This document shows positions 6,012 to 14,168 of a stretch of DNA of 64,000 bases, piece after piece (positions within the stretch are counted from its first letter, which is position 1; each line of letters begins with the position of its first letter). The notes beneath the pieces are model-generated. The model made no database searches, had not been told where the DNA came from, and was given only the letters and a program-made list of their open reading frames with translations. Source of the stretch: an uncultured cyanobacterium (lineage in GTDB: Bacteria; Cyanobacteriota; Cyanobacteriia; Cyanobacteriales; CAWUOF01); contig CAVUSO010000001.1 in assembly GCA_963744145.1 (NCBI GenBank), forward strand, positions 5,408,001 through 5,472,000, read 5' to 3'. The translations under genes were made by a program, and so were the position numbers.

Positions 6012-6988
6012 CTAAATACTCATTGCTAACATCCGTTGAATGGGTTGTAGTGCTGCTAAACGGGTTTCTTCGGGAAGCGTAATTTCTGGAGTACGGTTTT
6101 TCATGGCTAAATAAAGCTTTTCCAGAGTATTCAGACGCATATGAGGACACTCATTACAACTACACTGGTTCATGGGTGGTGCGGGAATGAAGTGTTTCTC
6201 TGGTGCTTGTTTTTGCATTTGATGAATAATTCCGGGTTCAGTAGCAACAATAAAACTCGAACTGGAACTGGAGCAAGCATATTTTAAGAGTGCAGTAGTA
6301 GAACCAATATAGTCTGCATGACGTAATACTGGTGGCTCACATTCTGGATGAGCAATCACTTCAGCATCGGGATGGACAATTTTCAGCTCGACAATTTTCT
6401 GTTCGGAAAATGTTTCATGGACGATACAACTACCTTGCCATAACACCATCTCTCTACCAGTCTGCTCCATTACATATCTCCCTAAATTACGATCTGGAGC
6501 AAAAATAATTGGTTGATCAGCGGGAATTTGATTAACAATTTTGACCACATTAGAACTGGTGCAAATAATGTCACTGAGAGCTTTAATATCGGCAGTACAG
6601 TTGATATAAGAAATGACTAAATGATTGGGATGGGCAGCTTTAAAAGCTGCAAAAGCATCTTTGGGACAACTATCAGCGAGGGAACAACCAGCTTTTAGAT
6701 CGGTAAAAGTACCAGTTTATTCGGGTTGAGAATTTTGGCAGTTTCTGCCATAAAGTGGACACCCGCAAAGACAATCACATCCGCATCGGTGTTGGCTGCT
6801 TTACGGGAAAGCTCTAGAGAATCACCAATGTAGTCAGCCACATCTTGAATATCAGGATCTTGGTAATAATGGGCTAAAACCACGGCATTCAGCTTTTTTT
6901 TCTCTTCTTCAATGAGAGTAAACAGATCCTGGTGGACTGGAATTGTAGTTTTGAGACTATCTTCGGAACGGATTAGAGTGGTAAACAC
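6012..6988 (-). pseudogene. nadA: Quinolinate synthase A, split by a 1-nt frameshift near 6701
   Basis: The N-part (AHYYQ...[21 protein letters not shown]) and C-part ([12 protein letters not shown]...YINCTA...CIVHE...HPEC...CPHM) are contiguous but one base out of frame. Confidence 0.88.
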
Positions 6989-9116: not shown

Positions 9117-9276
9117 ATTAAAATAAACTGCGATAAATTATGGGAGACTCAAGTTTAGTTTAACTTGGCTGGTAGTGAAATTGCTAGACTATGCCACTTG
9201 ATAGTCGTTGGTATTGCACCCTAATTAATTGAGCTAGGCGATCGCATCAAAAAGAAAATAAACAATCAATCCGATT

Positions 9277-9335
9277 GTAGGGGCAGGTTCACCGATCAAT
9301 TCTATCACAAACGAGTAATCATCATAAACCTGCCC
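9277..9335. repeat. REP-like imperfect palindrome (GTAGGGGCAGGTT...AACCTGCCC)
   Basis: Self-complementary ends; an inverted diverged copy lies at 40929-40987. Confidence 0.75.
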
Positions 9336-9591
9336 TCACCCACCGATAAATCCCAAACTACAGATCATCTTAGCAAACGCGATCGCACAGTTCAAAATTC
9401 AGGCGATCGCATAATTATAATTAGATTCATTACTAGGAACTTGCTGTTTTAATACCCACCGCTTTTTTATATTTTTGGACAAAATTTTATCCCATTTCAA
9501 GGTTAAGATAGTTTAATTAATGGGACAACTGGTGGCATAATTAAATTAACTAAATTAAAATAACAGATAAAAACTTTCCCTGGTACAGATA

Positions 9592-10008
9592 ATGGACCCA
9601 ATAACTGCTGGTGCGATCGCACTAATTACTCTGCTGGTCAACAAAACTTTTGAGAAAACGGGCGAAATAGTTGTAAGTAAAGCTTTTGACCAAGCAGGTA
9701 ATGTTCTCAACTTGCTCAAACACAAATCTCCCGAAACTGCCAAAATGATTGCAGCAGCAGAAAATCCTGCTTTACCTCCTGGTGAAACGGTATATATGGA
9801 TGCTGTGGTAGAAAAGGTACAATCAGAAGCCCAACGTGACCCGGAAATTAAGGCAGAGTTGGAAAAATTAGGGGCTATGATCGAAGCAGCGAAAAAGGTA
9901 GATCCGCAATTGGCTAATACTATTAATGAAAATTGGCAGGGGATATGTTTTAAAAATGCTAATCCTACTATTTCTAATAATACTTTTAATTTTGGTGGCA
10001 AAGGATGA
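9592..10008 (+). CDS. Small helical protein (Bell/HeLo-like effector candidate) with a C-terminal N/Q/G-rich motif
   Basis: Hydrophobic N-terminal helix MDPITAGAIALITLL and C-terminal NENWQGICFKNANPTISNNTFNFGG. ATGA overlap with the NLR gene. Confidence 0.7.
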   Translation: MDPITAGAIALITLLVNKTFEKTGEIVVSKAFDQAGNVLNLLKHKSPETAKMIAAAENPALPPGETVYMDAVVEKVQSEAQRDPEIKAELEKLGAMIEAAKKVDPQLANTINENWQGICFKNANPTISNNTFNFGGKG

Positions 10009-11620
10009 ATATTGAAAAAAATTGGCAGGGAATAAATTTTGAAGATGCCAATCCTAGTATTACGGGTAATCAATTTATCTTTAATAATCAAACACCTTCA
10101 ATTCCTGTTTATAATATTCCTTATACTGGTGTTCTTAATTTTGTAGGACGAAAAACGGAACTGCAAACACTGCAAGGGCAATTCCAGAAGTGTGATGGTG
10201 TAGTCATTTCTGCTGTGGCGGGGATGGGTGGTGTGGGCAAAACTGAATTGGCGATTAAATATGCACGCACCCATGAACAAGATTATCCTGGAGGGATTTG
10301 CTGGTTATCTGCTAGAGATGAGGGTTTAGCTAATAATATTTTACAATTTGCGCTGCTTGATCTGAAGTTGGAAGTGCCGCAAAAATTAGGCGAAAAACTG
10401 CTATCTCTTAAAGAACAGGTAAGCTGGTGTTGGCAGCATTGGCAACCATCGGCGGGGGCAGTTTTATTGGTGTTAGATGATGTTACTATTTGGAAAAGTT
10501 GTCGAGATTTTATTCCCAAAATTAATCGCTTTAAGATTTTAATTACTACCCGATTACGACATCTCGATAGCAATTTTCTTCAGTTATCGTTAGATGTATT
10601 TTCACCGGATGAAGCTTTAGAATTTTTGAGGAATTTGCTTGGGGAAAAGCGAGTAGCACAGGAACTGGAAATTGCTAAAGATTTATGTAAATGGCTGGGG
10701 TATCTGCCTTTGGGGTTGGAATTGGTAGGACGATATTTGGTGGAAGATCCTGATTTGTCTTTAATGAAAATGTGGGAGAGGTTAAGACAAAAACGGTTGG
10801 AAGATGAGGCAGTTAATCCTGGAGATGAAGATTTACAGGATACAGAAATGACAGCAAAGAGAGGAGTAAAAACTGCGTTTGAGTTAAGCTGGCAAGAATT
10901 GGATGTGATGACACAGCAATTAGGGGAATTGTTGAGTTTGTTTGCGCCAGCTATTATTCCTTGGAAATTATTAGTTGAATCTATAGCTAAATTGCTGAAT
11001 TGGAATGAGGCAGAGGTTGATAAAGGAAAAAAGGAACTTTATAAGCGATTTTTAATTAAGAGGTTAGCAGAAAGAGAGGCTTGTTATGAAATTCACCCTT
11101 TGATTAGGGAGTTTTTGAAAGCAAAGATAGATGAGTCTGAACTAGCACAAGATGTCAAACAGGCTTTTGTAGAAGTGATGGTAACAATGGCCAAGGAAAT
11201 TCCTGATTCAATCACGATAGATTTAATTGAGAAGTTAAAAGTTGTAATTCCTCATCTAGAAGAAGTAGCGGAAAACTTGATTGATATAGTTAGGGATGAA
11301 GATTTATATTGCGTTTTTTTAATGGGTTAGGTAGATTTTATCAAGGTCAAGGATTATATAATTTAGCAGAACCCTGGTTAGAACAGTCTTTAAGCAAAAT
11401 AAAAGCAAAGTTGGGCAACGACCATCCCGATGTGGCTGCCAGTTTGAACAATCTGGCATTACTCTACAACAACCAAGGGAGATACGCAGAAGCGGAACCG
11501 TTATTCCTTGACGCTTTAGTAATATGCGAAAATTGTTTAGGAAAAGATCATCCTGGTACTATTGATATTCGTCAAAATCTAGATATACTTAAAGAATATC
11601 TCAGCCAGAGTAAATATTAG
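10005..11620 (+). CDS. NB-ARC + TPR protein (bacterial NLR), frameshifted at T7 tract 11314-11320
   Basis: Walker A GMGGVGKT, Walker B VLDDV, ITTR and GYLPLGL. Kinesin-light-chain-type TPRs (HPDVAASLNNLALLYNNQGRYAEAEPL) are in the next frame (11309-11620). Confidence 0.85.
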
Positions 11621-13747: not shown

Positions 13748-13843
13748 GTGATTTCAACAATGAAAAAATCGAATAATTTTCAAACTTTCAATCCCGCGAT
13801 CGCAACACCCAAGAAAATATATTTATTACTGTTATATCTTGAG

Positions 13844-14168
13844 GCTTTAGTAATATGCGAAAGGGCGTTGCTGATTTACGGTATGAATAAAGAATTTGTA
13901 GGGGTGTATGGCTTTTGAGCCCAGGGCGCATAGCCATGCGCCCCTACAGAATTTTCATACCCTGATTAAGCAACGCCAGATCATCCTAATACTATTGTTA
14001 TTCGTGAAAATCTAAATATACTTAAAGAATCTCTCAGCCAGAGTAAAGATTAGCGATCGCCTGATCTATCTGAAAATGTTTAAAATCATCTTAATAACTC
14101 TCTTTCGCGATCGCATATTCCCTACTCGCTAGGGAAACTGTCAAATAAGGATTTACAGGCTGAAACCT
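13844..14168 (+). repeat. Direct repeat copy 2 of 11513-11735, interrupted by a MITE
   Basis: Colinear with copy 1 apart from the insertion at 13864-13977. Confidence 0.9.
13864..13977. mobile_element. MITE-like element with ~24-bp imperfect TIRs and an internal REP hairpin
   Basis: Ends GGCGTTGCTGATTTACGGTATGAA and TTCATACCCTGATTAAGCAACGCC; inner TGTAGGGG...CCCCTACA. Absent from the paralogous copy, where about 12 bp occupy the site. Confidence 0.8.

Follow-up and report, generated by a model that had tools for sequence, protein, structure and literature searches.

A cyanobacterial Bell-BASS7/NLR gene pair with amyloid-type motifs and a candidate stop-readthrough layout among its relatives

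The gene pair, its shared motif and its family

The locus lies in a 64,000-nucleotide stretch of DNA from an uncultured cyanobacterium (the window) and consists of two collinear genes. The first (9592–10008, forward strand) encodes a 138-residue protein that we assign as a Bell-domain effector with a C-terminal BASS7 motif, on the basis of its open reading frame, 38% identity to OUL32057.1 and an all-helical AlphaFold2 model. Its N-terminal hydrophobic helix (9592–9636, forward strand; residues 3–16 in the model, mean hydropathy of 1.69 over residues 1–15) carries Asp at position 2, a Bell or 'MEPIS'-type signature, and is a putative membrane-inserting segment. The model has a pLDDT of 73 and a low-confidence tail, with values below 50 at residues 119–134. 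The effector-side motif occupies residues 111–134 (9922–9993, forward strand), and residues 109–133 match the parallel beta-helix repeat model TIGR03804 at 20.7 bits against a cut-off of 19.45, which is consistent with a solenoid-type rung; the same model is matched by 6 of 45 homologues. Apart from this match, Pfam, NCBIfam and PADLOC gave no model for the effector, and PADLOC gave none for either protein of the pair. IPPT and CO_dh identities were rejected as weak matches below cut-off. In searches for a structural match such as HeLo, MLKL or Babybell, Foldseek returned no match for the effector model at E 0.001, a result still compatible with a Bell-type fold, and the best match of a VIA fold search was at background level (Z 5.3, rmsd 2.9, 64 aligned).

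The second gene overlaps the first by 4 nt in an ATGA stop/start (10005–10008, forward strand), from which we infer translational coupling. Its first frame (10005–11330, forward strand; 441 aa) comprises a motif, a linker, an NB-ARC domain and a helical domain, and has a PF25000 match below cut-off. The NLR-side BASS7 motif spans residues 3–26 (10011–10082, forward strand), as defined by alignment and by comparison with C12_PAX60320.1, and the NB-ARC domain spans residues 50–267 (about 10152–10805, forward strand; PF00931, E 7e-15), with the Walker A motif at 10221–10244 and a Walker B-like motif at 10464–10484. The C-terminal TPR part lies in a second frame (11309–11620, forward strand) and consists of about two 42-aa repeats (PF13424, E 4e-28; two stretches of PF13374). 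A preliminary description of this gene as encoding an NB-ARC-TPR protein holds for the NB-ARC domain but not for a single open reading frame, as the first frame ends at 11330 and the TPRs are encoded by the second. Neighbouring genes in the window are toxin-antitoxin-like (AbrB/MazE, nucleotidyltransferase, PIN, DUF5615/DUF433 and Uma2). HIP1 octamers lie close around the pair, at 9238–9410, 9613, 11620 and 11674, the genome average being 1.0 per kb.

The match reported earlier between the tail of the 138-residue protein and the head of its ATGA-coupled partner was confirmed. Effector residues 111–134 align without gaps to NLR residues 3–26 with 14 of 24 identities and a BLOSUM62 score of 80, which was reached by none of 20,000 shuffles of the NLR N-terminus (maximum 58) and none of 3,000 full-length shuffles (maximum 64). 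The accompanying statement that the DNA had diverged while the residues were kept proved weak: over the 28 codons compared, 57 of 84 nt are identical, the codons of the 14 shared residues are the same in 12 cases and synonymous in 2, and the 14 remaining codons alter the residue. With the same codons at 12 of 14 shared residues, the DNA of this pair alone does not demonstrate selection on the motif, which is demonstrated by other loci. At residue 119 the effector carries Cys where published motif instances and close homologues carry Asn; this Cys is kept in a contig from sequencing run X1 and may affect the tuning of templating.

A protein search yielded 44 loci, two of them without a downstream frame; the remaining 42 comprise 22 with a separate NLR start and 20 one-gene loci, described below. 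Stop codons at the 22 two-gene loci were TAA (13), TAG (2) and TGA (7, six of them ATGA overlaps). Exclusion of two near-duplicates (L046 and L030) and one locus with a disrupted tail (L026) left 19 two-gene loci, the window included. The effector and NLR motifs belonged to the same class in all 19 (15 BASS7 and 4 BASS5-like), with class labels taken from our own patterns and with kin among the loci that are not independent. Motif scores were 83 for cognate and 51 for non-cognate combinations, and 88.8 and 69.2, respectively, within BASS7 only; in both comparisons, none of 20,000 permutations reached the cognate value. Homologous pairs thus keep matched motifs, as the amyloid-signalling proposal had anticipated. 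A neutral local duplication as the source of the shared peptide, to which the identical codons might point, is excluded at the family level by the matches at all 19 loci across two motif classes and, since the motif also belongs to a published family, is extremely improbable for the window pair.

By-eye counts against published instances gave 21 of 23 identities between the effector motif and C12_s007 and 15 of 22 between the NLR motif and C12_PAX60320.1, and the README of the published BASS data set equates C12 with BASS7 (available part of PMC8086366 supplement 1). The identity of the effector to OUL32057.1 (P0067) extends over 154 columns and the full length. In the same part of that supplement, the C-terminus of OUL32057.1 is C12_s004 of the Bell-side C12 set, and its numerical neighbour OUL32058.1 belongs to the NLR-side C12 set. 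This full-length homology places the effector among the Bell-domain proteins of Dyrka et al. The effector is a short helical protein with a hydrophobic first helix, an acidic residue at position 2 and Bell homology; the two genes are collinear with a 4-nt overlap; and the matching motif class stands at the N-terminus of the adjacent NB-ARC protein. In the available text of bioRxiv 10.1101/2020.01.06.895854, 42% of Bell/NLR gene pairs overlap, BASS7-10 are recorded as cyanobacterial, and the motifs with tested amyloid formation are BASS1 and BASS3. Homologues of the effector were found in 45 of 401 genomes of the phylum, the named matches being cyanobacteria.

Judged from these sequence comparisons, the window pair almost certainly belongs to the BASS7 Bell/NLR family, and it is one further instance of an already published motif. 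The preliminary description had therefore read the layout correctly, a Bell-type effector and an adjacent NLR with a common amyloid-type motif, as the Bell homology and the matched BASS7 motifs indicate. Its suggestion that the motif may form a new family is ruled out by the C12/BASS7 identity on both sides, and the claim of novelty fails by the very comparison with known BASS families that it had proposed.

Beyond the pair, a Bell clade (P0068–P0213) combines one effector domain with many tail types other than BASS5, 7 and 9, as judged by eye; the tails of loci such as L012, L071 and L147 may represent unclassified motif families confined to one-gene loci. In P0215 and P0216 (349 aa), a CHAT domain is fused N-terminally to the Bell-BASS7 module, and an ATG at the start of the Bell domain could yield two products.

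Integrity of the NLR and proposed signalling by the pair

In the given assembly, a frameshift at 11312–11320 (forward strand), in a run of seven T (11314–11320), separates the TPRs from the first frame of the NLR. It was recognised from contigs of runs X1 and X2 and from an alignment of homologues. The X1 contig, possibly from the source sample, spans 9494–11369 and agrees with the window throughout except at 11312–11316, where it is two bases shorter. The X2 contig, from a relative sequenced in another study at a depth of 3.1, is also two bases shorter at this site, and the TPRs are in frame in both, which are contigs rather than reads. Across the break, six homologous loci can be aligned in a single frame. 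The nadA gene of the window (6012–6988, reverse strand) is likewise divided into two frames near 6700, both parts of which match PF02445; this is a sign of indel errors in the assembly, so that other split genes in the window need caution. As the frameshift is absent from the contigs of two runs, it is a probable consensus or assembly error, and the organism very probably has an intact NLR. With X placed at the break, the full protein would have ~537 residues and about two TPR repeats; this is a short TPR part, and the NLRs of relatives reach 700–1,089 residues.

A genuine pseudogene in a decaying pair would account for the frameshift, the short TPR part, the Cys that replaces Asn in the effector motif and a broken, non-coding second copy of the NLR 3' end located 2.4 kb downstream (13828–14168, forward strand). 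This explanation is nonetheless unlikely in view of the single two-base difference in the X1 contig, the shorter X2 contig and the split of nadA in the same manner. The second copy consists of two segments, 13828–13862 (89% over 35 nt) and 13978–14168 (95% over 191 nt), is interrupted by about 115 nt and lies beyond a block of toxin-antitoxin-like genes. At 11410–11519, contigs of runs X2 and X3 jump back 110 nt with 16 different letters between (126 nt, one 42-aa repeat); related genes have more TPR repeats, and these contigs may be of paralogue origin.

The mechanism that we propose for the pair is modelled on HET-S/NWD2 and Bab/Agp signalling. The TPRs would sense a ligand, probably phage-derived, upon which the NB-ARC domain would oligomerise and cluster the N-terminal BASS7 copies. 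The clustered copies would nucleate a beta-arch or solenoid amyloid that templates the BASS7 tail of the effector, and the Bell domain of the converted effector would release its hydrophobic first helix, resulting in membrane damage and death of the infected cell. A two-gene Bell-BASS7/BASS7-NB-ARC-TPR module with amyloid-type signalling is the best overall explanation of the window (probability of about 0.8), given the unfolded tail in the monomer model, the beta-helix repeat match and the toxin-antitoxin-like neighbours. By analogy with these systems, amyloid templating by the pair appears quite probable, and anti-phage death as its output is favoured with less assurance. The motifs may instead couple the proteins through a finite beta-helix-like complex, or the output may be something other than death, such as growth arrest or development. 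The occurrence of the TIGR03804 match in several homologues would suit such a complex, and the available text of bioRxiv 10.1101/2024.11.07.622273 leaves the function of Bell/NLR pairs to be elucidated. However, other BASS classes form fibrils (available text of bioRxiv 10.1101/2020.01.06.895854), Bab kills upon T5 infection (available text of bioRxiv 10.1101/2024.11.07.622273) and the hydrophobic first helix is retained, all of which make this alternative improbable relative to amyloid templating with lethal output.

One-gene loci and the element behind their stop

Twenty of the 42 homologous loci lack both a second motif and an NLR start; behind the terminal TGA-C of the Bell-motif gene, the NLR sequence continues in the same frame. 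An in-frame Walker A motif follows 49–117 codons past the stop at 19 of these loci, the first ATG often lying inside it, while at the remaining locus (L028) the frame closes 32 codons after the stop. As background, in genome G000 TGA-CTR ends 16 of 2,833 frames of at least 300 codons, and 123 of the 2,833 are followed by a same-frame open stretch of 100 codons.

A covariance model containing TGA and stem 1 of the element described below located 96 places in 52 of 121 genomes of family f6, of which 90 were read. Together with the earlier loci, these gave 109 distinct sites, at which the stop was TGA in 108, a share biased by the model; the next codon was CTA in 67 and CTG in 33, and a Bell domain lay upstream in 107. 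The frame remained open for at least 100 codons at 104 sites and for at least 300 codons at 94. Among 32 of 93 long downstream frames that were scanned, 28 contained NB-ARC or NACHT, one contained FGE-sulfatase and three contained TPR only, among the matches listed. At L080, the junction leads into a non-NLR, FGE-sulfatase-like frame.

Two patterns blind to the stop codon were also used. The first, applied to metagenomes, found five loci (one a duplicate of L051), all with TGA and a Bell-type gene before it. The second gave 41 matches, spread over 32 of 401 genomes from the order, and the reversed-pattern control gave none; the 30 loci read, several of which repeat earlier loci, had TGA in 23 cases, TAG in 6 that are close kin and a sense codon in one, that is, a stop in 29 of 30. 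The sense codon occurs at L006, a two-gene locus in which a copy of the element that is still able to pair lies behind the NLR's own motif, so the element sequence can persist without a stop. The six TAG loci (L168–L173) and two TGA loci (L162 and L163) have a PGAP1-like alpha/beta-hydrolase upstream in place of Bell, with profile scores near the cut-off, which suggests that the element is a general effector-NLR joint. The hydrolase of L168–L173 has a short beta-prone C-terminal tail, possibly a further motif class.

Named carriers of the element include plasmids pREB4 and pREB5 of Acaryochloris marina MBIC11017 and Nostoc sp. C057, in which the RefSeq NLR starts are ATT or GTG codons inside the open frame. 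No copy was found in the window's own genome with the RNA model, a simple stem scan or the pattern, and viral contigs held no exact match to the pattern; in G000 (96% complete), a single gene is clearly of Bell type. The element is thus a property of the family and not of the window locus. A tree of 40 Bell domains requires 11 changes of layout, at least 6 of them forced by well-supported branches, which points to repeated switching or recombination between the two-gene and one-gene layouts.

The candidate readthrough element, TGA-CTR followed by 8 nt and a hairpin or pseudoknot, is exemplified by L043 (4397–4441, forward strand), L150 (1501–1545, forward strand) and L102 (1548–1592, reverse strand), and occurs in about 100 further copies outside the window. 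Over about 45 nt it consists of the stop, an 8-nt spacer, a 5-bp stem (stem 1) and a G-rich loop that can pair with a run of pyrimidines lying 9 nt beyond it (stem 2). RNAalifold recovered stem 1 unaided. In the first 20 sequences, stem 1 was 96% paired with compensatory changes in three of five pairs, and the added stem 2 was 85% paired. In 57 distinct new sequences (set A5), 95.9% of cells pair, with two-sided change in 7 of 9 pairs (4 of 5 in stem 1 and 3 of 4 in stem 2, by one to four sequences each). A variant that is 3 nt longer (set A4, 19 distinct sequences) was 97.6% paired, with compensatory changes in three of six pairs of stem 1 and a stem 2 that is extended by one G-C pair and otherwise invariant. 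Across the sets, stem 1 is 5–6 bp long and 96–98% paired. None of 500 shuffles of any set reached the observed percentage paired and covariation score; such randomisation takes no account of kinship, and stem 1 was already part of the model that retrieved the new sequences. Synonymous positions are frozen over 13 codons (Ser TCG in 68 of 68, Lys AAG in 77 of 77) while residues vary. A search of seven loci against Rfam gave no match to the element and one chance-level match far from it. From these comparisons, stem 1 appears well supported and the pseudoknot likely.

We consider the one-gene layout to be probably a programmed stop readthrough. UGA-CUR (UAG in one alpha/beta-hydrolase clade), the 8-nt spacer and a small H-type pseudoknot would stimulate readthrough, such that a minority of the ribosomes decode the stop as an amino acid, probably Trp, and produce an effector-motif-NLR fusion, while most terminate and release the free effector-motif protein. 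In this arrangement, the receptor and the effector would necessarily share one amyloid motif, at a set low ratio, and a new motif would require no co-evolution. Viral readthrough is known to be signalled by UGA-CUA and a structure that lies 8 nt downstream (available text of PMC3159437), and enterobacteria decode UGA as Trp at a low level (available text of PMC7918605). Trp stands at the junction of two fused proteins, P0217 (an NCBI Nostoc genome) and P0214, although in P0214 the gene caller could have translated a TGA as Trp. P0217 has the order Bell-motif-W-NB-ARC and carries a CHAT-like part at its C-terminus.

Alternatively, the NLR may be made without a motif by downstream re-initiation, the RNA fold serving in coupling or mRNA processing. 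An ATG, GTG or TTG lies within 25 codons of the stop at 37 of 94 sites, and RefSeq annotates separate genes with ATT or GTG starts. However, only 2 of the 94 sites have such a codon in the first 15 codons, and 34 of 65 sites with a conserved F.GR element have none before F.GR. Length differences of 3 or 9 nt in the element leave the frame at 0, Trp occurs at the junction of the fused proteins, and an NLR without the motif would be unable to template the conserved tail. We therefore regard re-initiation as unlikely. A TTG or CTG start overlapping the stop in the -1 frame was rejected, as the median open length in that frame is 16 codons.

Less probable still is that the element is a DNA-level swap site, that a single old nonsense mutation left dead NLRs or that UGA encodes selenocysteine. 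The same junction joins varied tails to NB-ARC, NACHT or FGE-sulfatase frames, the layouts are mixed on the Bell tree and some NLR frames are broken, as the counts of open frames above indicate; yet the G-U pairs and compensatory changes indicate RNA, and one clade has TAG before the same element. Selenocysteine is unlikely since neither SelA nor a tRNA-Sec above cut-off was found in any of five carriers (96–100% complete), in searches whose positive controls matched. Programmed readthrough thus remains the preferred reading, and many cyanobacterial Bell-BASS/NLR systems are likely to be one frame with a programmed leaky stop, the two layouts interconverting.

Relation to known systems and significance

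The window pair resembles the Bell/NLR BASS7 pairs of Dyrka et al. in its motif on both sides, overlapping collinear genes, an NB-ARC partner whose TPRs are in frame in the X1 and X2 contigs and, from the available data, a Bell domain of 120–140 aa and a cyanobacterial range, and differs from them in the Cys for Asn in the effector motif and the short TPR part. Their screen required a motif at the annotated NLR N-terminus (available text of bioRxiv 10.1101/2020.01.06.895854), so one-gene loci could not have been paired by it. The Bab/Agp system of E. coli ECOR25 (BASS11), as far as its available text describes it, is similar in having a Bell-related effector with an acidic hydrophobic first helix and a C-terminal motif, and a partner with an N-terminal motif, but that partner is TPR-GreA/B-PIN and not an NLR, the Babybell domain is shorter and the motif class is another. 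It is the sole tested bacterial case, with defence by abortive infection (available text of bioRxiv 10.1101/2024.11.07.622273). In fungi, HET-S/NWD2 and 'all-in-one' effector-NOD-repeat NLRs show that two-gene and fused amyloid layouts both exist, and motifs between effector and NOD have been recorded (available text of PMC8086366); in contrast to the fungal systems, the one-gene loci would make a free effector and a fusion from one frame.

The element of the relatives shares UGA-CUA/CUG and the 8-nt spacer with the viral type II UGA-CUA signal and with that of MuLV (UAG, 8-nt spacer and pseudoknot), as well as compensatory changes in the stem and synonymous sites that are frozen (available text of PMC3159437). 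Unlike these signals, it lies in bacterial cellular genes, has a stem of only 5–6 bp and has no Rfam match; the main text of PMC3159437 does not mention bacteria. Literature searches found no readthrough in Bell/BASS systems, with subscription papers and preprint supplements as places where it could be mentioned. The main text of bioRxiv 10.1101/2020.01.06.895854 has no readthrough, stop codon, frameshift or recoding, from which the journal version and Table S2 could differ. Readthrough is likewise not mentioned in bioRxiv 2024.11.07.622273, PMC13506858, PMC9815663 and PMC8195603, and PMC7918605 makes no mention of cyanobacteria, NB-ARC, NACHT, TPR or pseudoknot. The one-gene layout of the readthrough type therefore looks like an undescribed switch.

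The window pair itself adds one BASS7 instance, and the unexpected variant resides in its relatives. If readthrough is true, it would explain matched motifs and a skewed receptor/effector ratio from one gene, and would account for Bell genes next to an NLR in which no motif is seen. Many annotated cyanobacterial NLRs would then lack their true N-terminus, and their gene starts would need correction. At about 45 nt, the element would also be a compact signal for recoding in bacteria, present in named cultured strains, and would constitute a MuLV-like, pseudoknot-stimulated signal in bacterial cellular genes.
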